In this document: one piece after another, positions 9,311 to 58,990 of the stretch
Position numbering within the stretch: the first letter of the stretch is position 1
Layout: each line of letters opens with the position of its first letter
Notes under the pieces: generated by a model
Databases searched by the model: none
The model's input: the letters and a program-made list of their open reading frames with translations, nothing else
What the model was told of the DNA's origin: nothing
Assembly (NCBI GenBank): GCA_946554335.1
Contig: CAMNSA010000011.1
Coordinates: forward strand, 12,158-76,157
DNA: 64,000 nucleotides
Source of the DNA: an uncultured Neglectibacter sp.
Lineage (GTDB): Bacteria > Bacillota > Clostridia > Oscillospirales > Acutalibacteraceae
Direction: 5' to 3'
Position numbers and translations under genes: made by a program

Positions 9311-9553
9311 CTTAGTTTTGGATATTAGTTATTAGCGAAGGCCAAAAGATTGATCTGACGATCAAAAAATCTTAATCTGGCAATCAAGCTTCAACGAATT
9401 TCACTTCGCGGATTGGAAAGCCAAGCAAAATTTCGGGAAGAGTGTCGGGCGAGCCACGACCCAAACATCCCCCAGACGCCGCATAGCGTCTGGGGGATGT
9501 TTGCTAACGACTTATCCCTCAAAACTAACAACCAGAATCTAAAAATCAACAGC
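9311..9553. repeat. MITE/REP-like palindromic dispersed repeat, copy B (inverted relative to copy A)
   Basis: 9395..9553 matches the reverse complement of 1..159 with few mismatches. 9311..9345 resembles the reverse complement of ~212..248. The middle hairpin differs between copies. Confidence 0.85.
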
Positions 9554-12500
9554 TATTCACAGTACCTCATCAGCATACTCGCCGCCTCGGCGCGGTTGGA
9601 TCTCCCTTTGGGATCGAGGGTCTGGTTGCCCTTGCCGGTGACAATACCGTTATCTACTGCCCAACACAGGGCGGAGCGGGCAAAGCCGCTCACCTTCTCC
9701 TTGTCCCGGAAGGCGTTCAGTTCTCCATCTGTCAGAGGGCTTCCGGCATATCGGTACAGGATCGCCGCCAGCTCCTGCCGGGTGATCAGATCGTTGGGCG
9801 CAAAGCGTGTGGCGGATTTGCCGTTTACAATACCATGCTCTGCCGCCCAGCGGACCGCTTCATAGCAGTAGCTTCCCGCCTTTACATCGGTAAAGGCTAT
9901 GGGGGCTATGCTTTCCGGCTTTTCCTCCAAGCGCCACAGGATCGTCACGATCATGCCTCTGGTAGTGGCAGCCTTGAGGGAAAAGACCGTCTCTGCAGTG
10001 CCGCTCATCAAGCCGTTTTCATAGGCCCAGCTCACCGCCTCATAGTACCAGGCTCCTTCCTTCACATCCGTAAAGGGCAGCTCCGCAGGAGGTTGGGGGT
10101 CCGGTCCGGGGGCGGGCCCTGGGCCAGGACCGGGACCTGGATCTGGCTGAGAGGTGGGAGTGGGAGTGGGAGTATGTGTAGGCGTTGGGGTAGGTGTCGG
10201 AGACGGTGTTGGTGTTGGCGTAGGTGTGGGAGTAGGTGTCGGGGTAGGAGTAGGTGTAGGAGTCACAGTAGGTGTGGGCGTTGGCGAGGGATCCAGCTTC
10301 GGAATGGTTTCCCGCTCCAGAATTATCTTGCAGTCCTTACACCGTTTTACCCTCTCTCCTTCTCTTGTCGCGGTGGGTGTGGTCCACAGCTCCCAATCTC
10401 CCGCAATGTGCTCCCTGGTAGGAATGGCTTTCGTTTCCTTCGCCTGACACCGGAAGCAGGAACGGATCTCTTCTCCCTCTTTGGTACAGGTGGGTAATCT
10501 CGTTTGATTCCAGACAGTCCAGTCGTGGCCCAAGGCAGGGATGGTCTCCTGTTCCTTGAGAATCGTATGACACACGGAGCACTGGAACCCTTCCGTTAAG
10601 CCCGTCTTGGTACAAGCAGCCGCCACCGCCGGAAGCTTTACCTCCACATGAACATGCATGGGAAGCTCTCTCGTCTCATACCCTCCACAGCGGGAGCACT
10701 CTCTCCGCTCTTCGCCTTTTTCCGTGGTGGTGGGCGCTTTCGATTGCCTCCAATTTCCCCACACATGACCCTGCAAGGGTGTGGGATTCGTCTGATAGCT
10801 GTCCCCGCAGCGGGTACAGGTATGGGTAGTATAACCACTCTCTGTGCAGATGGGCGGAGTCACCACCGTATGGTAGTCGTGACCCAGCTTTTCTTCCAGC
10901 ACCTCTTTACACACCGTACAGATTTTGTCGTGGGTACAATCCGCCGCTGTTCTGTCTGGTTTGTGGCCCATTTTTGGAATCGCTATTTCCTGTAGGGTCA
11001 TTTCCGTGACTGCCTGTTCCTCCGCATAGTATTTCCCGCACTGAGAACAGTGCCAGTGTTCTCTGATTCCGTCTTCCGTGCAGGAAGCGGGAAACTCTGA
11101 GTTGTGGGTCAGGCTGTGACTTACCCTAACTGTTCTGACTTCTTCTGCCGTATTCCCCGCATGGTCTGTGACAGAATAGGTCACCGTGTAGGTTCCGGGT
11201 GTCTTTTCCCGCACAGTGGAAGTGACAGCCAGCTTCTCCTGAATCTTTCCGTCCTGGTCGTCTGTCACTACCGCGCCTTTCTCTTCATAAGCTTCTTCGC
11301 AGCTCAGATTAATATGGTCCTTGCCGTTCAGAGTGATGACCGGCGCTTCCTTGTCGATCCAGGTGACAGCAGCCGCCACAGTGCCTTTTGTTCCCACTGC
11401 ATTCTGAAGCTCAAACTCAAAGCTGCCGTTTCCTGTGAATACATGGGTATTGCTGCCACCGTTATTGAGGATGACAGTTCCGGCGGGAACGGCAAGAGTA
11501 GCTGTCACATCCTGATTGGTAGGGCCGGTAATATCATAGCTGACCGTCCCTGTGGGCAGGGACTTGTCAATAATGCTCACCGTGGCGGTAACAGTCCCTT
11601 TGTTGCCGCTTTCGTCCTCAAATTCAAAGGTGAAGCTGCCGTTCTCTGTGAAGGTATGGCTCAAACTGCCGCTTTCCATATTTGTCACCGTAACCGGCTC
11701 CGAAGGCGTGATAGTCGCCACCACATCTCCGCTGGTGGGCTGGGTGGTGGAATAGCTCACCGTGGCAGTGGGAGCGATGGTATCCTGCACGATGACCTCC
11801 CGTTCCACTGTAGTTTTATTGCCCGCATGATCTGTGGCGGTGTAGGTCACTATATAGGTCCCGGCCTTTTCAGTGTTCACCTCGGAAGAATCTATGGCAA
11901 GCTTTCCTTCCAGTTTTCCCGCAATAATGTCCGGGTCTAAATTGTCTGTGACCTCCGCCCCTGGATCACTGTATTTCTCCCCGCGCTCTATCACCTGTGG
12001 AGAAGCTCCTTTCAGGGTGAGCTCAGGGGGATGGGTATCAATGTAGAAAGGCTTGGAGGTTACAGCTTTTGACAGTCTGCCTTTCCAGCTGATCGCGCCG
12101 TCCAAAAAGACAAGCTGTCCCATTCCGTCCTCAAAACTTGGAGAAGAAAGCGAGTAGTGGGTAATATAGAAGTTATAGGGTGTTGGATTAAGGTTTGCCG
12201 TATATACTCCAAATTTTTCCAAGGTGCCTGTAAAATAAATCAAATCGCGGTTAATCTTCAGCTCTGAAACCGGGACCAGATCACCCCCGGGTCCGGCCGT
12301 AATTGCTGACCGAAAAATGGTTCGAAGATAGCTTTCATCTTTTAATAAGTTTGCTAGCCCTACAGAGGTTTTTTGTAATTGCGAAAGAGTGACAACAGGC
12401 GCGGGATCAGTAAACCCCTTGCGAAAACCGGTATCTATAGTGGCTTTGTCATGATCCATCTTCTGAACGGTCAGATATGCATCGGTTGACGCCCCGGAAT

Positions 12501-13842
12501 ACAGGCTGCTGCCATATGTGCCAAAGGACTTGATCGTTCCATGCGCAGTAGTTTCCGGCGTGTAAAGATCCTCTGCGCTATAGAGGCTGGGATGCGTTGT
12601 ATCCTGCGGGTCCCGCACTTTTCCGCTTTTCTATACCGGCATGATGTACCGGTATTCCCGCTGGTATAAGCTATACACTCCTGAAGACACAGCTCGTTCC
12701 GTATCGCAGTGCCAGATGACTACGCCGGGGTGGCCATACATTTTTGTCCTATACTCAGCCCCAGATCCACTTTCTACAGTTTCTCCCTGAGTGGCGCTGC
12801 GGTATTCTGCCACAAAGAACTCCGTAAAAGGAAACAGCGTGGAATCCGGGATCAGAACCACCGCTTTCGGTGTCTCCGTATCCGTGTAATTTTCCACGGC
12901 GCCAAGCTCGATATGGTTGGATAAGGCGTCTTCCTTTGTCAGAATGATTGGGTCAATCCAGCCCAGCAGGATTTTTTGATATGCATTCAGATATAAATCA
13001 CCCGAAGGACTGCTCATAACATCTGCTAAACTCACATCGATCCAAGGCTACTTACGATGATCACTATATCCATAGTGATCTGGAAGCCCCATCATATGCA
13101 GAATTTCATGGACAATTGTACTCGTGACTTTTGAAAAAACCGCAGAGAATGCCCAAAATCCATCCACCATTACCGCGCTCAAGGAAACGATGCCGCGTCG
13201 CGTAAATGTGCCCGTCCAACCGCCTGATCCGCCATTATATGGTGGACTTATTGGCTCATAATAGAATTCAACTAAAAAACCATCAACCCATCCGTCTTTG
13301 TCGCTGTCGTAGTCTGTCGGAACCAGATCTCCTGTAGAGATGCAGTGTTCCAACGCTGATTTCATCAGTTCTCTCACCATGCTCTCTGTTGAATAGTAGG
13401 AGCCGGGATTTTCAGCGTGATAGACGAAGGTATCCGCAGTCAGATCCAGTCTGCCGTAGGACAATGCCTGGAAAGCTGCATGCACGGATTGGGTAAAGGG
13501 TCCTTCCACACTTGCCTTATCAACATCCAGTTCAGCGTTATATTTCTTTTCCAATGCTCGATACAGTTCTTCATCATTTTCACGATGGTCTGAAAAATCA
13601 ATTGCTAAGACCGGGATTTTGATTTTACCAGTTGAAGGCATGGGTCTAACTAAAACTTCAGAAAAAATGGAAATCTGTGAAACTCGATATCCGCCTCCGC
13701 TTGTTTTTTCCGCTCCAAATTCTGTTTTTATTTCTTCCGGTTCACTGCTTTGCAAAGCAAAAGCTCTGTATTCACTTTGCAGTGATACAAAGAAAAATAT
13801 GGTCAAAAGGAAGGCCACTGCTCTTTTTTTCATGGAATCCAC
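9553..13842 (-). pseudogene. Secreted M6-family (immune inhibitor A-like) metalloprotease with Ig-like/DUF5011-like repeats, Cys/His-rich repeats, Pro-Thr linker and C-terminal SLH domains; one frame interrupted by two TAG codons (pseudogene or read-through)
   Basis: ORFs 13048..13842, 12631..13035 and 9553..12618 are all in one frame, with internal stops TAG at 13048-13050 and 12631-12633. Signal peptide MKKRAVAFLL; HEILHMMGLPD zinc motif; DVMS and LLGWIDP after stop 1; SLH motifs (FTDV...[18 protein letters not shown]). Confidence 0.85.
10151..10290 (-). repeat. Pro-Thr dipeptide repeat linker (followed by Pro-Gly repeats) within the SLH protein
   Basis: Translation [18 protein letters not shown]...; degenerate 6-bp codon repeats. 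Confidence 0.9.
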
Positions 13843-13933
13843 ATTCCTTCCCTGAAATACGTGTTATTGTAATTTTCGAAAGAGCTAAAGCAACCAGGGC
13901 GGTACATATTTGCACCGCCCGCTGCCTTAAAAA

Positions 13934-14512
13934 TTACTGGTTCTTGAGATACAGGGTCATGACCTGTTCCTTCACTGTTCCGTCTTCATAGAGACGCTCT
14001 ACTCGATATTTGTGCGCAGTATATCCGGGGATACCCTTTGCCTGTTTTGCCGCCGCTCTTCTCATGCCGCTTCCGCTGTCATTGAGCTGTGTCATGGAAA
14101 GAATCTGACTGTCCGGCTCATCTACAAACACGAATACCATCGGCTGGATATCGTCCGGGTTTTCCAGATATACGGGCAAATTGAACATACCCTCCACCAC
14201 ATAGAAATCGCTGATTTCCGCATCAATGGTATCCAAATCCCAAACGGCAGGGATATCTTCCAGCTCATCATTACTGAGGAGCGCCGGGATCGTCGCGGGA
14301 AGATAGTCCAGCGGATCTTCCCCCACCATCATATAGATATCCTCTTCCGGTACATAGGCTTCCACAATGGTGTATTTTGCTGTGCGCACAGCCAGTGTCA
14401 CAGGAAGGCTGCTGGGATTCTTTACATTGGAGCCCACCAGAAGCCTCCCGCGCAGAGTATAAGCGCCCACTGTCATGGGGTCGTAATTCGGATTTTCCTC
14501 CTGCCGCAGCAA
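13934..14512 (-). pseudogene. Probable 5'-truncated surface-protein fragment with Ig-like (Big_4-like) repeat
   Basis: LPATIPALLSNDELEDIPAVWDLDTIDAE...YVVEG resembles Big_4. No RBS or signal peptide; the frame closes ~10 codons upstream at a TAG and then a TAA. Confidence 0.55.
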
Positions 14513-14742
14513 GAAGGCGATGGGGACTGTGACTTCTGTCTAAAATGTTTTTTCGAAGTTTAGGCCCTTTGATTACGACTTTAAGAGCATCTTACTACTG
14601 GATAGTATTATATGAGAACTAGCAAGGAAATTCAATATTTTTGGAATAAATTCGTCAAAAATTGAGGGCTGTTAGTCGCTTAAAAAAGCCGCGCGTTTCG
14701 CGGCGAAGGGGGATAGGGACGCCCCTTCTGGTAAGAGACCGG

Positions 14743-15288: not shown

Positions 15289-15560
15289 TCTCTTTTCCGC
15301 CCTTCTTCCGTTTGCCTTATAGCTTATTATAGGTCGAAAGAAATTGAAACACAATATTGCGGGGCGGGTCCCGGGAAAATATCCGGGGCAGGTGGATTTT
15401 TTTCACTTTCTGTGTTATACTGGCCCTAAAGGTAGGAAAACACTGCCGCCAAGCAGAAAACAGGCGGACTTTTGGAGTGGCCTCCCAAAACCGGGAGCGG
15501 ACTTTTGCAAGGCTGGTTTTGAAATTTCGCCGGAAATATGAGAAAAGGAAGGAGTTTCTT

Positions 15561-16418
15561 ATGGCAAAGGTTTATTTCACCAAGGAGATCACGCCCCAGG
15601 CGATGGTCCGGATGTACGAGGCGCTGGGGATCACACTGGAAGGGAAAGTGGCTGTCAAGGTCCATTCCGGCGAGGTGGGGAATCAGAACTTTTTGCGCCC
15701 GGACTTTATGAAGCCGGTGATCGACCTGGTAAAAGGCACCGTCGTGGAGTGCAACACCGCCTATGAAGGCAAGCGCAGCACCACAAAGGATCATTTGGAG
15801 ACCATGAAGCTGCACGGCTGGACCGAGATCGCTCCTGTGGATATTATGGACGCCCAGGGGGAGATAACGCTGCCGATCCAGGGCGGAAAACAGATCCACG
15901 AGAACTTCGTGGGCGCCAACCTGAAAAACTACGATTCCATGCTGGTGCTCTCCCACTTCAAGGGCCATCCCATGGGTGGCTTTGGCGGTGCGCTGAAGAA
16001 TATTTCCATCGGGATCGCCTCCGCTCACGGCAAGGCCTATATCCACGGAGCCGGCAAGCCGGAGAACCTGTGGACGGCAGATCACGACTCCTTCCTGGAG
16101 TCCATGGCGGACGCGGCCAAGTCCATTGTGGAGTATTTCGACGGGAAGATCGCCTTCGTCAATGTGATGAAGAATATATCTGTGGACTGCGACTGCTGTG
16201 CTGTGGCGGAGGATCCGGCTATCGCCGACATCGGGATCCTGGCTTCTCTGGATCCTGTGGCGCTGGATCAGGCCTGTCTGGATCTGGTCTATGCCTGTGA
16301 TGATCCGGGCAAGCCCCACCTGCTGGAGCGCATTGAGTCCCGCAACGGCGTGCATACCGTGGAAGCGGCAGAGGAGATCGGCGTAGGGGAGAGAAAGTAC
16401 GAGCTGATCGAGCTGTAA
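15561..16418 (+). CDS. DUF362 domain Fe-S protein
   Basis: VAVKVHSGE, SHFKGHPMGGFGGALKN, CDCC; AAGGAG RBS. Confidence 0.88.
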   Translation: MAKVYFTKEITPQAMVRMYEALGITLEGKVAVKVHSGEVGNQNFLRPDFMKPVIDLVKGTVVECNTAYEGKRSTTKDHLETMKLHGWTEIAPVDIMDAQGEITLPIQGGKQIHENFVGANLKNYDSMLVLSHFKGHPMGGFGGALKNISIGIASAHGKAYIHGAGKPENLWTADHDSFLESMADAAKSIVEYFDGKIAFVNVMKNISVDCDCCAVAEDPAIADIGILASLDPVALDQACLDLVYACDDPGKPHLLERIESRNGVHTVEAAEEIGVGERKYELIEL

Positions 16419-16594: not shown

Positions 16595-17197
16595 ATGGAA
16601 CCGTATTTTAAGCAGGAAATATATTTCCCCGGGACTGTGGTGGAGCGCCAGGGGAAAAGCGCGAAGGAGTTTTTAGACGGACTTTTCTTTGCTACCCGGG
16701 GCCTGATGCTTTCTCAGGTCAGGGAGATTACCGCTCTGGAGACCTCTGTGATCCAGAATTGGGTGAACCGGGGCTGGGTGCAGAAGCCGGTGGAAAAACG
16801 CTACACCGCCAATCATCTGACCAGGATCCTGTTGATCAATATGCTCAGAGATGTGACGAAGCTGGAAACCATTGTGCAGCTTCTGACTTATCTCAACGGC
16901 AGCGCGAACTGCCGGGAGGACGACAGCATTTCGGAGTCACAGCTCTATCTCTATCTCTGCGATATTCTGGATGAGGCGGATTACGAGACCATCCTTTCCG
17001 GCAGGCTTGACAGGATGATCGAGGAGCGGGCGGCGGATTACCGGGAGCCCTTTCCGGGAGGCCGGGAAAAGGTGGTCAACGCCTTAAAGCTGATCTTGAC
17101 CTACTACGCCGCCTCCCGCATCAAGGTACGGGCGGACCGGCTTTTCAAAACGATCATCGGTGAGGAAGAGGCGCTGACGGAAAAACCCTTTGTATAG
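16595..17197 (+). CDS. DUF1836 domain protein (winged-helix-like)
   Basis: SVIQNWVNRGWVQKPVEKRYTANHLTRILLINML pattern; GGAGG RBS. Confidence 0.8.
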   Translation: MEPYFKQEIYFPGTVVERQGKSAKEFLDGLFFATRGLMLSQVREITALETSVIQNWVNRGWVQKPVEKRYTANHLTRILLINMLRDVTKLETIVQLLTYLNGSANCREDDSISESQLYLYLCDILDEADYETILSGRLDRMIEERAADYREPFPGGREKVVNALKLILTYYAASRIKVRADRLFKTIIGEEEALTEKPFV

Positions 17198-19445: not shown

Positions 19446-19817
19446 AGAGATTTTCAGAGGATAAAAGAGCTTTGTGCTTCTGAAAACAGCCTAAAAACGA
19501 TCTGCCCGCTGAAAGGATTTACCTTTCAGCGGGCAATGTTTTATAATATTCTCACGCTGTAACCCAACGCCCTGCGGGCTTTGGACAGCTGAGAGAATAT
19601 TGAAACATGATGGCGTTTCACTTCAGATGTGAAACGCCAAAGGACGAATCACTTCGTGATTCAAGCATGTTATAATATACGCAGAAAAGCTTGTTTCACA
19701 AGCTTATGAGACTAGCGTCTCTGCGGCCGCGCAATGGAATTATGGTATAATGGGTGTGCGGGTTCGAAAAACGAAAAAGGGAACGGTGTGAAATTCGGTT
19801 TGTGGAGGTGCTCTAAA

Positions 19818-20354
19818 ATGCAGCTTGAAATGCGCAAGGTAAAGCTTAACAGCCCGGAAATCAAACGCATCTATTTTGAAGCATTTCCTCCAAAGGAGCG
19901 TATGCCGTTCCCTATGATGGTGGGAATGTCCAAATTGTGGAATACGGAGTTTCTCGGTTTTTACGATGAGGGGCTTCCTCTAGGCCTTGCATATTTCGCT
20001 TTTAACAGGAAAATGGTGTTTTTGATGTTCCTGGCTGTAGATCAAAGCTTTCGCTCAAAAGGTTATGGAAGCGCTGTGCTGGAACAGATAAAAAGGAAAT
20101 ACTCCGGGCAGAAAATCGTTGTTTCCATTGAGCCCTGCTGGGAGAATACGGAGGATAGGGAAGTCAGGAAAAGACGCAAGGCGTTTTATCTGCAAAACGG
20201 GTATCTGGAGACCGGTTATCTAATGAAGCTGAACGGTGTAACGCAGGAGATCCTTATTGCAAACGGCGCGTTTGCAAAAAAAGAATTTTGCCGGTTTCTC
20301 TTCGCCTACAGCTTCGGCAGTCTGTACCCGAAGCTATGGCTTCAAACCGTTTAG
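19818..20354 (+). CDS. GNAT family N-acetyltransferase
   Basis: FLAVDQSFRSKGYGSAVL, FYLQNGY; GGAGG RBS. Confidence 0.88.
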   Translation: MQLEMRKVKLNSPEIKRIYFEAFPPKERMPFPMMVGMSKLWNTEFLGFYDEGLPLGLAYFAFNRKMVFLMFLAVDQSFRSKGYGSAVLEQIKRKYSGQKIVVSIEPCWENTEDREVRKRRKAFYLQNGYLETGYLMKLNGVTQEILIANGAFAKKEFCRFLFAYSFGSLYPKLWLQTV

Positions 20355-30786: not shown

Positions 30787-31611
30787 CTAAAGGGAGTCCC
30801 TTGAATGGGGCTCCGATTTTTCCAGCAGGCCGCTGAGCTCGTCCAGATCCCGCAGAACGAGATCTGGCTTCACATCGCTCTCTTTCAACATCTCCTTCGT
30901 GGTCTCACCGCTGAGCACCAGAATGGAGGTGACCTCAGATCCGGCCGCCACGGCAATATCCGTGTAAAGCCGGTCTCCCACCACCGCCAGCTCTTCCGGT
31001 TTACACCCGGTTTCCCGCAGCATATATTCCAGGGTGTGAGGGGAGGGTTTTCCGAAAAACTCACAGGGGACGCCGGTAGAGGTCCTGATGAGGGCGGCCA
31101 TAGAGCCGCAGTCCGGGATAAACCCCTCCTCCACCGGACAGTTGAGATCCGGGTTCACCCCGTAATAGGGCCTTCCCCGCCTGATGAAATGGCAGGCCTT
31201 CGTAAGCTTTTCGTAAGTCAGGGTGGTGTCGAAGCCCAGCACGACGAAGTCGGGGTCCTGATCGTTTTGCGGGATCCCCGCGGCTTCAAAATCCGCGCAG
31301 AGCAGGGGGGTGCCCACGACAAAGCAGCTTTCCCCGGGCCGGTTCTCTTTGAGCCATTCTATGATTACGGCGCTTGCGATCAGCATTTTTTCCGCCGGGA
31401 TATGGATCCCCATGCGGGAGAGCTTGTCCAGATAGGCCTCTCTGTTTTTGGAGCTGTTATTGGTGAAAAAGCAGAATTCCCGACCGGTTTTTTCAACCGT
31501 TTCCAGAAAGCGGGGCATAAAGGGAAACAGGTGCTCTCCCAGATAAATGGTGCCGTCCATATCCAGCACGAACATTTTAATGCGGGAGAGCCGCCGAAGG
31601 GCTTGTTCCAT
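30787..31611 (-). CDS. HAD-IIA (NagD-like) hydrolase
   Basis: DMDGTIY, TNNSSK, GKPSP, VGDRLYTDI. Confidence 0.92.
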   Translation of the reverse strand: MEQALRRLSRIKMFVLDMDGTIYLGEHLFPFMPRFLETVEKTGREFCFFTNNSSKNREAYLDKLSRMGIHIPAEKMLIASAVIIEWLKENRPGESCFVVGTPLLCADFEAAGIPQNDQDPDFVVLGFDTTLTYEKLTKACHFIRRGRPYYGVNPDLNCPVEEGFIPDCGSMAALIRTSTGVPCEFFGKPSPHTLEYMLRETGCKPEELAVVGDRLYTDIAVAAGSEVTSILVLSGETTKEMLKESDVKPDLVLRDLDELSGLLEKSEPHSRDSL

Positions 31612-31916
31612 AAAAAACATCCTTTCCACAGAGCCTGGGTCGACCGCGGCGGGGAGAACAGGGCGGAAAAGAGAAACATCGCCTTTGAGGGCTTCTCCCG
31701 GAAAAAACGGCAAAGCTATTTTAGCATGGAAGCGGGGCTCTTTCAAGGGAAAAGTACGGCCATTGAGAAGGGCGAAAAGGGGGCTGTTATTTTTTTTCGG
31801 TTTGCGCTATAATAAAAGTATGGATTTAAGAAAGGACTGCCCGGCGTTTTTCGGGGCAGAGCGACAAGGATCTGCAAAGAGCTCTCTTTGATTTCAAAAG
31901 GAAAGGAACGATCAGG

Positions 31917-42975: not shown

Positions 42976-44352
42976 ATGAAACGATGCCTTATTTTCTGTT
43001 TGGTTTTGTGTCTGCTTGCAGGCTGTGCGGCGGGAGGCTCTCCCGGCGCGACCGGAAAAGCTCTGTGCCTTGTAAAGGCCGAGTATCCTCAGATGCAGCC
43101 CTTCCCCAGGGAGGAGGCGTATCAAGACGAGGCAACCGGCGAGTGGGATCACTCTGCCTATGAGGAGGACTATGAAAAATGGATCCACTCCCGTTCACAG
43201 CTTCGGAGGGACCTGCCCGAGGGATACAACCGGGGACTTACCGCTTTTTTTGAACGCAGCGCGAAGGAGCTTTTGCGCCCGGAAAGCGGCGAAGAGGAGG
43301 AAAACCGGGTCTATTCTCCCTTAAATCTCTATTTCGCCCTGAGTATGCTGGCCGAGACCGCCGGGGGCGATACGCGGCAAGAGATCCTGAAGCTTTTGGA
43401 AAGCAACAGCGTGGAATCGCTCAGAGAGAAAACAGCGGATCTCTGGACGGCTAATTATGTGGATGACGGCCGGGTGACTCAGATTCTCTCCAATTCCTTC
43501 TGGCTCAACGAAAGCCTTTCCTATCATCAGGAGACTCTGGACCTGCTGGCAAAGGAGCATCGCGCCTCCTCCTTTTCTGGGAAAATGGGAAGCGCAGAGC
43601 TGGATCGGGCCCTGCAGGACTGGATCAACGAGCAGACCGGAGGGCTGTTGGAGGAATCGGTGGAGGGCGTCAAAACAGACCCCAGAACGGTGATCGCGCT
43701 GGTGTCGTCTCTGTATTTCAAGGCGGGCTGGGATGATGAGTTCTCCCCTGAAATGACGGAAGAACAGGTGTTTTACGCTCCCTCCGGGGAAGAGCGCTGC
43801 CTCTTTATGCGGGAAACTCAGGACATGGGCCTGCTCTATGAGGGAGATCAGTTTTCCGCGGTGATCAAGCAGTTGTCCGAGGGGCATATGAAGTTCCTGC
43901 TTCCCAAAGAGGGCGTATCCCCATACTCCCTTTTGGAGGATCCCCAGGCGCTGGAGTTTCTCTTTTCTCAAAATCAGTGGGAAAGTGTTCGGGACTGCAC
44001 CATCCATTTTGCTCTTCCCAAGTTTGACGTCACCTCCGACCTGGATCTTATTTCCGGGTTGAAGGCGCTGGGGGTCACTCAAGCCTTTGATCAGACGGCG
44101 GCTGACTTTTCCCCTTTGACCGACACACCGGGAACCTATCTCTCCAAGGTCCAGCACAGCGCCCGGGTTATGGTGGACGAAGAGGGATGCGCGGGAGCTG
44201 TCTATACCGTGCTCCTACAGGAGTGCGGTGGGGCGCTGCCGGAAGAGCAGGAGGAGATCGACTTTATTCTGGATCGTCCGTTCCTCTTTTCCGTTTCCGG
44301 GATCGCTGGCGAGACCCTTTTCGTGGGGATCGTACAGCATCCGGAGAGCTGA
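42976..44352 (+). CDS. Serpin family lipoprotein
   Basis: Lipobox LAGC, VYSPLNLYFALSML, NDWIN-like QDWINEQTGG, LYFKAGW, LPKFD, VDEEG, DRPFLF. Confidence 0.92.
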   Translation: MKRCLIFCLVLCLLAGCAAGGSPGATGKALCLVKAEYPQMQPFPREEAYQDEATGEWDHSAYEEDYEKWIHSRSQLRRDLPEGYNRGLTAFFERSAKELLRPESGEEEENRVYSPLNLYFALSMLAETAGGDTRQEILKLLESNSVESLREKTADLWTANYVDDGRVTQILSNSFWLNESLSYHQETLDLLAKEHRASSFSGKMGSAELDRALQDWINEQTGGLLEESVEGVKTDPRTVIALVSSLYFKAGWDDEFSPEMTEEQVFYAPSGEERCLFMRETQDMGLLYEGDQFSAVIKQLSEGHMKFLLPKEGVSPYSLLEDPQALEFLFSQNQWESVRDCTIHFALPKFDVTSDLDLISGLKALGVTQAFDQTAADFSPLTDTPGTYLSKVQHSARVMVDEEGCAGAVYTVLLQECGGALPEEQEEIDFILDRPFLFSVSGIAGETLFVGIVQHPES

Positions 44353-49703: not shown

Positions 49704-50903
49704 ATGAGAAAGCTTTATTCAGCCCTGGAGGTGAGAAGCGGGAGAGAGCTTCTGCTGCGGATTATGGGCAGACTCCACTTCGGCCTGATCGTGGCTGTTT
49801 TATACGCTATGGTCTGGGCCATTGTCTCTTCGGGAGAGAGTTTTCTGATCCCTTTTTTCCGGGGCTTTACCCTTACCGCGGCGTCTGTTCTCAGCTTTTA
49901 CGCGGAAAAGAAGCTGCGGAGCATGGGGCAGTTCCTCTTTGCCAGTCTGGGCGTTTCCCTGCTTTCCTGGCTGATGATGGGAAATATCGCGGGCCTTTTT
50001 CTCTCCGCTGTCATCTGCTTTTTCCGGGGCAGGGCAAGGCTTTCCGAGGTGCGGGAGGAGTCCTTGTTTGACAGCCCCCATCCGCTTGCGCTGTTACTTT
50101 TCCTCGTCCCCTTCCTGTGCGGGGCCGGCTTTGAATATTTCGATCTGCAAAAGCTCTGCCTGATCAGCGCCGTATGCTATGCTTTGGTCTGCATGGCGTT
50201 TTATGGATTACAGCGTATCGACGCTTATCTGAAGCTCAACGAGGGAATGAAGGGCCTTCCCTCTAAAAGGATCCTGCGCACAGCGGGCCTGGCGGTGGCT
50301 CTCATGACAGGAGCGGCGGCCCTTCTGCTGATCCCGGCGGCCTGGTTCGGCTTTCAAGGCTTGGCCATCGATTTCAGCGCTCTGGAACAGGGCGGCCTGC
50401 CGGTGATCCTTCCCGGAGAGCCTGCAGCCGTTTCTCAGGAGCAGATGGATTTTTCTCAGCTGCTCCCTGAAGGGCAGAAGCCCTGGTTTGAAATTCCACC
50501 CTTTGTCTTCTACCTTGTGTATGCCCTGTGCATAGGGGGGATCCTTCTGTTGGTGATCTACGGGGTCTATCGGATCATCCGCAGCTTTCGCTCTTCCTTT
50601 ACGGACAGTCGTGACCTGGTTCAGTTCCTCTCCCACAAGGAGGAGAGGAAGGAAGTGGTGGAGAAGAAGCGCGTCGGGAAAAGACCTTCCTTTTTTGACC
50701 GGTCGCCCAACGCCCTGGTGCGAAGGCGTTACCGCAGGGAGATCCTGAAACGGGCGAAGGAACGCCCAAGCTCGGCCCATACTCCCCGGGAGCTGGAAGC
50801 GGCTGCCGGAGTGCTAGACCCCGCTCTACACCGCCTTTATGAGAAAGCGAGATACAGCGAGGCCGGATGCACAGTGGAAGAAGCCAAAGGCGTAAGAGGC
50901 TGA
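49704..50903 (+). CDS. Polytopic membrane protein (DUF4129-like C-terminus)
   Basis: Multiple TM helices, C-terminal RRRY...TPREL...LYEKARYS; third gene of the moxR operon. Confidence 0.75.
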   Translation: MRKLYSALEVRSGRELLLRIMGRLHFGLIVAVLYAMVWAIVSSGESFLIPFFRGFTLTAASVLSFYAEKKLRSMGQFLFASLGVSLLSWLMMGNIAGLFLSAVICFFRGRARLSEVREESLFDSPHPLALLLFLVPFLCGAGFEYFDLQKLCLISAVCYALVCMAFYGLQRIDAYLKLNEGMKGLPSKRILRTAGLAVALMTGAAALLLIPAAWFGFQGLAIDFSALEQGGLPVILPGEPAAVSQEQMDFSQLLPEGQKPWFEIPPFVFYLVYALCIGGILLLVIYGVYRIIRSFRSSFTDSRDLVQFLSHKEERKEVVEKKRVGKRPSFFDRSPNALVRRRYRREILKRAKERPSSAHTPRELEAAAGVLDPALHRLYEKARYSEAGCTVEEAKGVRG

Positions 50904-50955
50904 TTCCCTGATAAAATATGAAAAGGCATATTGCTTTACAGATAGGGAGAGGAAC

Positions 50956-52302
50956 ATGGAACAGCAAAGCTTTTTTGAACACTCCCGGAAGGAGATTTCC
51001 GGCGTTCCCATTGCCGCCAGGATGCGGCCGGAGACGCTCAGTGAGTTTGTAGGGCAGGACCATTTGCTGGGAGAGGGGAAGATCCTGCGCCAGCTTATCG
51101 AGCAGGACCAGATCGCCTCCATGATCTTCTGGGGGCCTCCCGGCGTGGGGAAAACCACCTTGGCGAGGATCATCGCCAGGCACACTCAGGCAAATTTTGT
51201 GAATTTCAGCGCGGTGACAAGCGGGATCAAAGAGATCAAGGAAGTGATGAACAAGGCGGAACGCAGCCGTATTTTGGGGGAGCGGACCATCCTCTTTGTG
51301 GATGAGATCCACCGGTTCAACAAAGCTCAGCAGGACGCCTTCCTGCCCTTTGTGGAAAAGGGCAGCATTATTCTGATCGGCGCCACCACAGAAAACCCTT
51401 CCTTCGAGATCAATTCCGCTCTTTTGTCCCGGTGCAAGGTGTTTGTGCTGCAAAGCCTTTCCGTTTCCGTACTGTTAGAGCTTCTCCACCGGGCGCTGAA
51501 GGATGAAAGAGGCTTCGGCGGGCAGGAGATCTCCATTTCGGAAGAGCTTTTGGAATCTATCGCACGATTCGCAAACGGCGACGCCCGCATGGCCCTGGGG
51601 ACCCTGGAGATGGCTGTGCTCAACGGTGAGCGGAAGGGCCTTTGCACCAGGGTGACGGAGGAAAGCCTTGCCCAGTGCATCAGCAGAAAATCCCTCCTGT
51701 ACGATAAGAAAGGGGAAGAGCATTACAATATTATTTCAGCGCTGCACAAGTCTATGCGCAATTCAGACCCGGACGCAGCGGTCTACTGGCTTGCCAGGAT
51801 GCTGGAGGCGGGGGAGGACCCGCTCTATGTGGCCCGCAGGCTGATCCGCTTTGCCAGCGAGGATGTGGGAATGGCGGACAGCAGGGCGTTGGAGGTCGCG
51901 GTGGCGGCCTATCAGGCCAGCCATTTTATCGGGATGCCGGAATGTACGGTGAACCTGACCCATGCGGTGGTATATCTCTCGTTAGCGCCAAAATCCAATT
52001 CCCTCTATCGTGCCTATGAAACGGCCAAGGAGGACGCGGGGAAAATGCTGGCGGAGCCGGTGCCGCTTTGGATCCGCAACGCACCCACCGCCTTGATGAA
52101 AGAGCTGCATTATGGAGAAGGGTATCAATATGCCCATGATACAGAGGAAAAGCTTACCTCCATGCAGTGCCTTCCGGAATCCCTTTGGGGGAAAAAATAT
52201 TATCTGCCCACGGAAGAGGGCAGTGAGCGCCGGGCGGGAGAAAGGCTCAGGCAGATTGAGGAGTGGAAGGAACAAAAACGAAAAGCGACAACTCATTTAT
52301 AG
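50956..52302 (+). CDS. rarA: Replication-associated recombination protein A
   Basis: PIAARMRP, WGPPGVGKTT, DEIHRFNKAQQD, ISALHKSMRNSDPDA, ASEDVG. Confidence 0.95.
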   Translation: MEQQSFFEHSRKEISGVPIAARMRPETLSEFVGQDHLLGEGKILRQLIEQDQIASMIFWGPPGVGKTTLARIIARHTQANFVNFSAVTSGIKEIKEVMNKAERSRILGERTILFVDEIHRFNKAQQDAFLPFVEKGSIILIGATTENPSFEINSALLSRCKVFVLQSLSVSVLLELLHRALKDERGFGGQEISISEELLESIARFANGDARMALGTLEMAVLNGERKGLCTRVTEESLAQCISRKSLLYDKKGEEHYNIISALHKSMRNSDPDAAVYWLARMLEAGEDPLYVARRLIRFASEDVGMADSRALEVAVAAYQASHFIGMPECTVNLTHAVVYLSLAPKSNSLYRAYETAKEDAGKMLAEPVPLWIRNAPTALMKELHYGEGYQYAHDTEEKLTSMQCLPESLWGKKYYLPTEEGSERRAGERLRQIEEWKEQKRKATTHL

Positions 52303-57730: not shown

Positions 57731-58990
57731 CTATTCGTGGCGCAAGGCGTCGATGGGGTTTAGATTGGCCGCCTTTACGGAGGGCAGCAAGCCAAACAGG
57801 ATGCCGATGGCCATGGAGAACAGCACAGCAAGGAAAATAAAGGGAACACTGATGGAGACGGGAGCCTGGGTCAGGGAAGAGATCAGCATGGAAAGGCCAA
57901 ATCCGGCTCCTACGCCCAAGATGCCTCCCAGGCTGGTGAGTACGGCGGCCTCTGTCAAAAACTGCCAGAGGATCCTGCTCTTCTTAGCGCCGATCGCTTT
58001 TTTCAAACCGATTTCCCGGGTGCGTTCTGTTACCGATACCAGCATGATATTCATCACGCCGATACCGCCTACCAAAAGCGAGATACTGGCGATCCAAATC
58101 AGCTGTTGGTTGGTGGCATTGCTCAGATCCTGCAGCTCCTTGGCCTTTTGCAGGGTGTCCTCGCCCCGGTAGTGGATCTCTTTATTGGTGTTGTAGGAAT
58201 TGAGCAGATCTGCCGCGTCCTTGCCCACCGTGGACATGGCCTCGGTACTGGAGGCCTGTACAGACATCTCCTGGGGCTCGTCGTAGGAGAAAAGAGTGGG
58301 CCAGATGCTGTTGGGCAGAAAGATCTTTCCGCCGGAGGAGGACTGGGCATAGGTGAAATAATCTTCTATGCTGTTGATGACCGGCTCAAATTTCCGGTTT
58401 TCCTCCACGACGCCCACAATGACCAGAGCGATAGAGCTGTACTCAATGGTTTTTCCCACGGCTTCTTCGCCCTGAAACAGCAGCTTTGCCGTGTTGTCGT
58501 CAATGACGGCGACAGCCCGAAAGTCCCGGAAATCCTTGGGCATAAAGGTCCTGCCCCGCTTGACGCGGTAGCCGCAGGTGGTGAAGTAGGAATTGTCGAT
58601 CCCATATACCTCCGCCCCGGAAAGCTCGGTGTTTCCGTAATAGAAGGAGGCGTCGTAGCTCTGCCTGCGGTTATAGACCGCGGCGTTTTCCACATTGGGA
58701 AGCTCTAAAACCTCCTGATAGAGGTCATCGGAGATCTGGGGGATCCCCTCCGGGATCCCTTCGTAATTGACTTCGTAAACATAATCGGCGTCCTGGCGGT
58801 ACAGCTGGATCTTCACCACATTGTTGCCGGAGCCGATCAGATTCTGCTTGATCTGTTCATTGGTCCCCTTAATGGTGGACACAATGGAGATGATGGAGGC
58901 AATGCCGATAATGATGCCCAGCATAGTCAGAACGGAACGCAGCTTGTGTGACCAGATGCCTTGAAAGGAAAGTCGAATATTCTCAATCAC
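57731..58990 (-). CDS. MacB/FtsX-type ABC permease
   Basis: RSVLTMLGIIIG, LLVGGIGVMNIMLVSVTERTREIG, LNPIDALR. Confidence 0.95.
   Translation of the reverse strand: MIENIRLSFQGIWSHKLRSVLTMLGIIIGIASIISIVSTIKGTNEQIKQNLIGSGNNVVKIQLYRQDADYVYEVNYEGIPEGIPQISDDLYQEVLELPNVENAAVYNRRQSYDASFYYGNTELSGAEVYGIDNSYFTTCGYRVKRGRTFMPKDFRDFRAVAVIDDNTAKLLFQGEEAVGKTIEYSSIALVIVGVVEENRKFEPVINSIEDYFTYAQSSSGGKIFLPNSIWPTLFSYDEPQEMSVQASSTEAMSTVGKDAADLLNSYNTNKEIHYRGEDTLQKAKELQDLSNATNQQLIWIASISLLVGGIGVMNIMLVSVTERTREIGLKKAIGAKKSRILWQFLTEAAVLTSLGGILGVGAGFGLSMLISSLTQAPVSISVPFIFLAVLFSMAIGILFGLLPSVKAANLNPIDALRHE

Follow-up and report, generated by a model that had tools for sequence, protein, structure and literature searches.

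A gene for an SLH-anchored, M6-like zinc metalloprotease on the minus strand of the window, i.e., the whole 64-kb stretch of DNA analysed here, is very probably a young unitary pseudogene that was broken by two ordinary single-base nonsense mutations, and not a recoded gene. The two in-frame stops, hereafter TAG1 and TAG2, are real DNA on contig-level evidence. The gene is classed as unitary on the grounds that intact orthologues exist, that the change from TAC to TAG is seen directly at TAG2, and that TAG1 presumably derives from GAG or CAA/CAG. The adjoining giant surface-protein gene, already cut to a 3' stump, is also counted in favour of a pseudogene.

Gene layout and domain architecture

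Translation of positions 9553-13842 on the minus strand yields 1,430 codons, interrupted by exactly two stop codons, each of them a TAG, and thus bears out the initial annotation, in which a single frame was described as broken by two TAGs only and by no frameshift. The stops read DHRK*PWIDV (TAG1) and IMPV*KSGKV (TAG2) in the translation, and aag TAG cct (13050..13048) and gta TAG aaa (12633..12631) in the minus-strand DNA. Their previous placement at codons 265 and 404 is correct when counted from GTG 13842, while they represent codons 262 and 401 when counted from ATG 13833. The latter is the likelier start of the gene because the sequence GGAAGGA is located approximately 10 nt upstream of this ATG, and the frame that begins there comprises about 1,427 codons and closes with the gene's own terminator, also a TAG (9553-9555). 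The ORF products of the broken frame are 264, 134 and 1,021 aa in length. Judged by alignment, the frame represents a single gene and is no fortuitous open frame, because two uninterrupted orthologues align full length across both stops: L002:6001..10563 (1,520 aa), from an uncultured Clostridia MAG (CAMVYG010000008.1), and L003:5854..9306 (1,150 aa), from Neglectibacter caecimuris and of the same architecture. The encoded order runs from a signal peptide through the M6-like zinc protease domain, the Ig-like domains, the Cys-rich repeats and the Pro/Thr linker to three SLH repeats, and the component features are as follows:

9553..13833, minus strand: whole disrupted protease gene (pseudogene), from translation, Pfam/TIGR matches and the collinear intact orthologues L002 and L003
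13756..13833, minus strand: predicted Sec signal peptide, MKKRAVAFLLTIFFFVSLQSEYRAFA, judged by eye from the sequence
13078..13110, minus strand: zinc-binding motif HEILHMMGLPD (HExxHxxGxxD), residues 242-252, from translation and alignment
13048..13050, minus strand: TAG1, codon 262 from the ATG, presumably the older nonsense mutation, from contigs and orthologues
13012..13023, minus strand: D-V-M-S with Met273, candidate Met-turn, from alignment, with a putative structural role
12631..12633, minus strand: TAG2, codon 401 from the ATG, TAC (Tyr) changed to TAG, presumably the younger mutation, from contigs and orthologues
11116..12030, minus strand: Ig-like region, two PF16403 Bact_surface_Ig-like domains on either side of further Ig-like repeats
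10294..11115, minus strand: Cys-rich (CxxC-type) repeat region, from the translation read by eye
10087..10293, minus strand: Pro/Thr and Pro/Gly low-complexity linker, from translation
9556..10086, minus strand: three SLH repeats, cell-wall anchor, PF00395

The zinc-binding motif is invariant in an alignment of close homologues (alignment A2) and conserved among 55 family members. Met273 is also invariant in alignment A2, and the D/E-x-M column is retained in nearly all 55 relatives. Met273 is located downstream of TAG1 and is consequently absent from the ORF1 product, so that the earlier view of ORF1 as lacking the Met that follows the zinc motif, and of the SLH anchor as lying beyond TAG2, holds at the level of sequence. 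The assignment to family M6 fared less well: HExxHxxGxxD and a downstream Met are present, but the match to TIGR03296 (residues 76-358, 63.5 bits, E 2.8e-17) falls below the curated cut-off of 110.8, and no Pfam match to Peptidase_M6 was obtained at E<=0.01. The protease would be described as M6-like or as a distant relative, not as a certified M6 member, the 'M6' label itself being weakly supported. When alignment A2 was used as a profile against PDB sequences, no protein of solved structure was matched. The protease shares with the InhA-type M6 metallopeptidases of Bacillus (MEROPS M6, TIGR03296) its secretion (here predicted), the HExxHxxGxxD motif and a later conserved Met, whereas its C-terminal Ig-like/Cys-repeat/PT-linker/SLH architecture and its probable inactivation set it apart from them.

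A Pfam scan of the protease gene returned PF16403 in two stretches (127 bits) and PF00395 in three (101.9 bits), the latter representing the C-terminal triplet of SLH-anchored surface proteins, while no matching family was found for the Cys-rich repeat region. The length of the linker differs among strains, the X1 and X2 contigs skipping 10167-10232 and inserting 16 nt, which alters the length by -48 nt overall and keeps the frame. In the population, the alleles of the protease are mosaic and length-variable, as expected of exposed surface proteins.

The L002 protease resembles that of the window in its domain order from signal peptide through three SLH repeats (51-73% identity by segment), in the almost identical stretch LLGWIDPIILTKE...FFVAEYR, and in being preceded by a Big_4-repeat gene. 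It differs in being uninterrupted, with GAG at the position of TAG1 and TAT at that of TAG2, in a loop after the zinc motif that is 9 residues longer, and in the full length of its upstream Big_4 gene (1,952 aa), of which the window retains a 198-residue stump. A Neglectibacter-like copy (P0001 on L001, Logan SRR11450179) belongs to the same protease family at 41% identity and is also divided into two ORFs, one for a protease of 463 aa and the other for a 712-aa protein with Ig-like and SLH parts. Its split, however, is due to a frameshift at a C run near L001:1603-1612, with no nonsense codon, and may reflect either slipped-strand variation or a fault of assembly. A word-indexed protein search returned one homologue only for a 609-aa N-terminal query and none for the partial ORF of Logan contig L008; the index missed the window's own ORF products (P0035 and P0045, retrieved by exhaustive representative search) and is thus uninformative for the protease gene.

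TAG1 and TAG2 in related strains

TAG1 is located 10 codons past the zinc motif, in a hypervariable loop between this motif and the conserved D-x-M, and its column across the 55 family members is hypervariable and often gapped. The closest intact orthologue, L002, carries GAG (Glu) at this codon, while X5 and X9, two diverged sister strains, possess the stop-free loop Y-GSRHGPEQN-W (...GAA CAA AAT TGG), with CAA (Gln). This loop was obtained from contig overhang on L002:6700-6900; none of the X5 and X9 contigs aligned on the TAG1 region of the window at 80% identity, and a reference cut at L002:6797 likewise yielded no alignment. TAG1 itself is unchanged in the X1-X4 and X7 contigs and in three Logan contigs (L008, L009 and L010), and occurs in independent assemblies of at least seven runs (X1-X4, X7, SRR26831067 and SRR26831068). 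Samples of several studies and years (2020-2024) carry TAG1, and the disrupted allele has not been rapidly purged, a point that counts against the pseudogene reading.

TAG2 sits at the conserved Tyr inside the conserved PVYKSG motif. Tyr occupies this position in the three close homologues L002 (TAT), L003 and P0001, and in 22 of the 55 family members. The window base 12631 (C) is G in the X1, X2, X3, X5, X8 and X9 contigs, which restores TAC, and these six runs are rat-gut and faecal metagenomes from at least four studies. Among the contigs compared, the TAG2 allele was located only in the window and in L009, the Logan assembly of SRR26831068, with all of its 2,486 nt identical to the window, both TAGs included.

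A sequencing or assembly error, with one or both stops absent from the organism's DNA, would be most readily argued from TAG2, which is unlike every metagenome contig aligned on the window. The two sampled words that cover its allele occur in no run of a 31-mer index (61-nt stretch; with two words only, a weak search), and SRR26831068 could be the window's own read set, which would make a systematic read error possible at this site. Such an error is nevertheless extremely improbable, as TAG1 recurs in independently assembled contigs, TAG2 is reproduced within the identical L009 sequence, and the remaining window genes are without any disruption that would point to a poor consensus. The null alternative of the initial annotation, i.e., two independent nonsense mutations or assembly errors, is therefore supported in its first part, while the recurrence of TAG1 in at least seven runs and of TAG2 in SRR26831068 speaks against the second.

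Order of the stops and state of the downstream frame

The distribution of the two stops is nested: L008 combines TAG1 with TAC at the second site, the window and L009 carry TAG1 and TAG2, and TAG2 without TAG1 was not seen in any contig examined. The existence of TAG1-alone strains and the absence of TAG2-alone strains suggest stepwise decay, in which TAG1 would be the older stop.

Over about 2.4 kb, the window and L008 show only three differences, all non-synonymous or nonsense, which is counted in favour of a pseudogene. Variation among metagenome contigs after TAG1 falls in third codon positions at 27 of 38 sites (a hand count on short contigs that are unphased with TAG1), and the contig differences there are clustered like recombination tracts; as the contigs are mosaic and L002 is too distant for dN/dS, this third-position bias is taken as uninformative on selection after TAG1. 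Identity to L002 amounts to 50-73% in the downstream segments versus 51% before TAG1, and the approximately 1,165 codons after TAG1 contain no frameshift and no stop besides TAG2. The gene thus bears no positive sign of decay beyond its stops, which fits a very recent inactivation and is no proof of lost function.

Persistence of the TAG1 allele with an intact downstream frame would be explained if the allele were a hypomorph and not a null, with function retained either by near-cognate read-through of TAG1 at a low level, up to the appearance of TAG2, or by separate fragment products. The TAG1 loop tolerates almost any residue, the downstream frame of L008 is intact to the contig's end, and the allele recurs across studies, all of which would accord with a hypomorph. 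However, stop codons are as a rule read through spontaneously at rates much too small for normal amounts of protein to be regained, the fragment beyond TAG1 has no signal peptide and, by eye, no convincing ribosome-binding site, and a second stop was later gained at a conserved Tyr, as expected once a frame escapes selection. On balance a hypomorph is improbable. Very improbable is a scheme in which TAG1 is partly read through, owing to a suppressor tRNA elsewhere or a leaky context, with TAG2 as a later true knockout in one sub-lineage; if true, the leakiness of TAG1 would allow an anchored surface protease to be made in a small, tunable amount. Re-initiation at GTG 13035, past TAG1, was rejected as a functional route, this start having neither a ribosome-binding site nor a signal peptide.

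Pyrrolysine, suppressor tRNAs and TAG usage

The initial annotation had proposed amber suppression, whereby pyrrolysine or a suppressor tRNA would decode both TAGs into a full-length anchored protease, perhaps conditionally. It is true that both internal stops are TAG in a frame otherwise intact over 1,427 codons, that TAG1 persists in several samples and years, and that the search for suppressor and pyl genes covered the 64-kb window only. Within this window, the reported absence of pyl genes and of a CUA tRNA was confirmed, as ARAGORN gives only tRNA-Gly(CCC) and tRNA-Arg(CCG), and Pfam scans of the large ORFs detected neither a PylS-type synthetase nor a methylamine methyltransferase; a suppressor is presumably absent from the rest of the genome as well.

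At published bacterial pyrrolysine sites, an in-frame TAG occupies a conserved position of a methylamine methyltransferase, and pylBCD, pylS and tRNA-CUA are also present (PMC7593587). The mtmB, mtbB and mttB genes (e.g., of Bilophila, PMC7593587) likewise contain an in-frame TAG in an intact frame and are truncated by annotation pipelines, but their TAG occupies one conserved position, whereas those of the window are confined to certain strains, have taken the place of ordinary sense codons and are found in a protease gene. The alignment of orthologues, advised earlier as a check on conservation, revealed that the two TAGs lack conservation: TAC, and thus Tyr, is found in close strains at TAG2, where the stop replaces a conserved residue of a conserved motif, and relatives have CAA or GAG (Gln or Glu) at TAG1.

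Furthermore, TAG is in ordinary use as a terminator, as the initial annotation had also stated. It ends the protease gene itself and at least five Pfam-verified window genes (16595-17197, 19716-20354, 30787-31806 on the minus strand, 50896-52302, and 57731-58990 on the minus strand), and in a greedy ORF set of the window TAG closes 9 of 54 ORFs, including three fragments of the protease gene. No other split gene was found in the window. A genome-wide reassignment of TAG was rejected in view of the verified genes ending in TAG and of a lack of any TAG-specific excess of same-frame split ORFs. With sense codons at both sites in conspecific and sister strains, the first outcome that the initial annotation had named as a refutation, amber suppression yielding a conditionally anchored protease is unsupported and has next to no likelihood.

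The neighbouring surface-protein remnant

Upstream of the protease gene, the following features were recognized:

13897..13920, minus strand: GC-rich stem-loop with a weak T tail, between the remnant stop and the protease start
13934..14539, minus strand: remnant (3' end) of a giant surface-protein gene with Big_4 repeats, 72% identical to L002:45-5903, residues 1755-1952
14607..14635, minus strand: promoter-like site TTGAAT-17-TATAAT upstream of the remnant, 10/12 consensus matches, a consensus match only

The gene immediately upstream of the intact L002 protease encodes 1,952 residues, of which the remnant matches only the last 198, and the similarity between the two begins ahead of any start codon. 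The same GNAT-remnant-protease arrangement is also present in L008, L011, L012, L013 and L014 and in X9/X5. The promoter-like site may drive transcription of both the remnant and the protease gene.

Discussion

In a spore-forming Clostridia bacterium of the rat gut, the intact ancestor of the pseudogene would have encoded an M6-like zinc metalloprotease that was secreted and anchored through SLH repeats. As a first step, a single-base change would have converted a Glu/Gln-type codon (GAG or CAG) to TAG1 in one strain lineage, so that translation would end after 261 residues. The exported fragment would keep HExxHxxGxxD and would be devoid of the conserved Met, the remaining catalytic domain, the Ig-like domains and the SLH anchor, and protease function was presumably lost. 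In a second step, a sub-lineage represented by the window and SRR26831068 would have gained TAG2 from TAC at the conserved Tyr, a change that we propose was acquired because selection on the remaining gene had gone after TAG1.

The ORFs of 264, 134 and 1,021 aa should accordingly be annotated as one pseudogene, and neither as three proteins nor as a recoding candidate. More generally, in-frame TAGs of Clostridia genomes are no evidence of pyrrolysine unless orthologues share them, and public metagenome contigs can quickly settle stop-codon questions of this type. The present case is an ordinary recent pseudogene and matters little beyond correct annotation. It is of modest ecological interest in that a rat-gut lineage would appear to be shedding a two-gene surface locus, which encodes, besides the SLH-anchored protease, a giant adhesin-like Big_4 protein.

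A surface protease frame interrupted by two TAG codons

Across the 1,430 codons translated from 9553-13842 on the minus strand, the only internal stops are two TAG codons, as described for this single frame in the initial annotation.

TAG1, 13050..13048, minus strand: DNA aag-TAG-cct, peptide context DHRK*PWIDV
TAG2, 12633..12631, minus strand: DNA gta-TAG-aaa, peptide context IMPV*KSGKV

An ORF listing cuts this frame into products of 264, 134 and 1,021 aa. The likelier start, judged by eye from a GGAAGGA motif ~10 nt upstream, is the ATG at 13833 rather than the GTG at 13842; numbered from this ATG, TAG1 and TAG2 represent codons 262 and 401 of 1,426, while the gene's own terminator is also TAG.

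The Pfam scan of the frame matched two Bact_surface_Ig-like domains and three SLH repeats, but not Peptidase_M6. The NCBIfam M6 domain model TIGR03296 covers residues 76-358, extending across TAG1 (E 2.8e-17), although its score of 63.5 bits falls under the curated cut-off of 110.8, and the M6 metalloprotease label originally applied is therefore defensible only as 'M6-like'. The zinc motif HEILHMMGLPD (residues 242-252) is N-terminal to TAG1 and the conserved D-x-M (Met273) C-terminal to it, as had been proposed. Termination at TAG1 would yield an exported product of 261 residues that retains the zinc motif but has neither the conserved Met, nor the remaining catalytic domain, nor the SLH anchor, and which would thus very probably be inactive and unanchored.

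Intact orthologues and sense codons at the stop positions

Two orthologues that share the architecture of the window gene and contain no interruption were recovered from a scan covering a single genome for each GTDB species. The disrupted frame is one gene, of which intact versions exist elsewhere.

L002:6001-10563: 1,520 aa, uncultured Clostridia MAG, uninterrupted
L003:5854-9306: 1,150 aa, Neglectibacter caecimuris, uninterrupted

The protease family is sizeable, since an exhaustive HMMER search with the Neglectibacter-like homologue P0001 as query matched 1,153 cluster representatives at E<0.001. Identity between the window gene and L002 was 51% before TAG1, 72% between the two stops and 50-73% after TAG2. 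At 12800-12990 (protein residues ~283-345), LLGWIDPIILTKE..AVENYTDTETPKAVVLIPDSTLFPFTEFFVAEYR, the two are near-identical while the flanks reach only ~50%, pointing either to a core under strong constraint or to recent exchange between species.

The TAG2 site corresponds to the Tyr of a PVYKSG motif in three of three close homologues (codon TAT in L002), and Tyr occupies this column in 22 of the 55 members of a family alignment, nearly all close relatives among them. At base 12631 the window has C, whereas all Logan contigs covering it, from metagenomes of rat gut and faeces (X1, X2, X3, X5, X8, X9), have G and consequently encode TAC. TAG1 precedes a conserved W-I-D by two codons and falls in a loop that, in the 55-member alignment, is hypervariable and frequently gapped. 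In L002 this site is GAG, encoding Glu (cac tat cga aat GAG gct tgg vs gat cat cgt aag TAG cct tgg in the window). The diverged sister strains X5/X9, which are 90-95% identical to the window outside mosaic patches, carry a different loop without a stop (first 30 nt C GGT TCA CGA CAC GGT CCT GAA CAA AAT TG, i.e., (Y)GSRHGPEQN(W)), with CAA (Gln) at the TAG1-equivalent position. Orthologues, whose comparison was suggested in the initial annotation, and related strains thus carry sense codons at both sites (TAC/TAT at TAG2; GAG/CAA at TAG1), and, given these codons, each TAG is a single base from a sense codon.

These data bear on the earlier suggestion that amber suppression or pyrrolysine decodes the TAGs. 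The TAG of the pyrrolysine site described in Bilophila is conserved across orthologues (PMC7593587), and such conservation, the key criterion, is seen for neither TAG here. ARAGORN detected only tRNA-Gly(CCC) and tRNA-Arg(CCG) in the window, no PylS-type synthetase or methylamine methyltransferase family was found within the 64 kb, and same-frame split ORFs in the window displayed no TAG-specific excess. Furthermore, TAG terminates the Pfam-verified genes at 16595-17197, 19716-20354, 30787-31806 (minus strand), 50896-52302 and 57731-58990 (minus strand). Decoding of the TAGs, unsupported by the tRNA and gene content of the window, is therefore considered highly improbable.

Distribution and probable order of the two stops

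Contigs of X1-X4, from one study, and of X7, from a separate one, carry TAG1 unchanged. A lookup with the precise ORF1 product (P0035) gave three contigs from Logan.

L008 (SRR11223912, matching the 3,964-nt X1 contig): TAG1 present, TAC at the second site
L009 (SRR26831068): identical to the window over all 2,486 nt, TAG1 and TAG2
L010 (SRR26831067): TAG1 present, contig stops short of the second site

Based on these assembled contigs, both stops are real DNA with a nested distribution, and TAG2 without TAG1 was not found in any contig examined. The sole independent witness of TAG2 could come from the window's own read set; nevertheless, recurrence of the stops in independent assemblies contradicts an assembly or sequencing error, also raised in the annotation, to which we attach very little probability.

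Tyr is present in all outgroups (L002, L003, P0001, X5/X9), indicating that TAC is ancestral at TAG2, and in the simplest history TAG1 would have arisen first and spread, with TAG2 following later in a sub-lineage. This order is the expected pattern after a first stop lifts selection on the remaining frame. The gene is thus very probably a pseudogene of recent origin that resulted from two nonsense mutations in succession, and the null explanation of independent nonsense mutations is substantiated by the relatives' sense codons and the nested alleles. Leaky read-through of TAG1, which would make the allele a hypomorph, appears unlikely: the frame past TAG1 shows no decay other than TAG2 and the TAG1 loop tolerates any residue, yet the later stop at a conserved Tyr counts against continued selection.

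Across ~2.4 kb the window differs from L008 at only three bases, none of them synonymous (GTG/ATG in the upstream remnant, TAG/TAC and ACC/CCC). Contig variation is third-position biased (27/38 sites, by hand), although the short mosaic contigs cannot be phased with TAG1 and are uninformative on post-TAG1 selection.

Allelic variation of the protease gene

The protease gene is mosaic between strains at 12663-12788, 12990-13252, 13618-13756 and 10167-10232. X5/X9 carry diverged whole-patch replacements in which the frame is always kept (107 vs 110, 261 vs 279 and 137 vs 137 nt), while the Pro/Thr linker of X1/X2 is 48 nt shorter, a pattern suggestive of recombination, or of diversifying selection on a protein exposed at the surface. 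The Neglectibacter-like homologue on L001 (Logan SRR11450179) is likewise divided into ORFs of 463 aa and 712 aa, in this case by a frameshift within L001:1600-1850 at a run of ~9-10 C; the frame shifted by one stays open as far as the Ig-like/SLH ORF. Slipped-strand phase variation of a surface protease could account for this, as could an assembly error.

At 15600-16400, within the DUF362 gene (15357-16418, plus strand), metagenome depth rises several-fold, with many short diverged contigs and apparent 'joints'; as this gene is conserved in many co-resident taxa, contig evidence here is unreliable for strain comparison.

Genomic context and the upstream remnant

The window represents unremarkable chromosomal DNA from a spore-forming member of the Clostridia. 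Among its genes are those for SpoIIE, a class I Trp/Tyr-tRNA synthetase, an EF-G-like GTPase, MgsA, transporters and a serpin, all intact. The serpin, a bacterial one in the genome of a rat-gut Clostridia organism, is encoded at 42976-44349 (plus strand) by a 458-aa ORF whose Serpin domain is full-length (PF00079, E 1e-53). It lies some 30 kb away from the disrupted protease, to which it probably has no relation.

13934-14539, minus strand: 200-codon frame upstream of the protease
14607-14635, minus strand: near-consensus promoter-like site (TTGAAT-17-TATAAT) ahead of this frame
14688-14704, minus strand: terminator-like hairpin of the GNAT gene, preceding the promoter-like site

The 200-codon frame is 72% identical to residues 1755-1952 only of the full-length, 1,952-aa Big_4-repeat surface protein (L002:45-5903) encoded directly upstream of the intact protease. 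Since this similarity starts ahead of any start codon, the frame is read as a 3' stump left by deletion of a giant gene; in annotations it may still appear as a 192-aa 'hypothetical protein'. The promoter-like site may originally have belonged to the deleted gene, and could today drive both the stump and the protease pseudogene.

The disrupted protease is a real and ordinary feature. The GNAT-stump-protease order is common to all conspecific contigs examined and also to the diverged X5/X9 strains, which indicates that the giant-gene deletion is older than TAG1, and hence that this two-gene surface locus was already one member short before the protease was hit.
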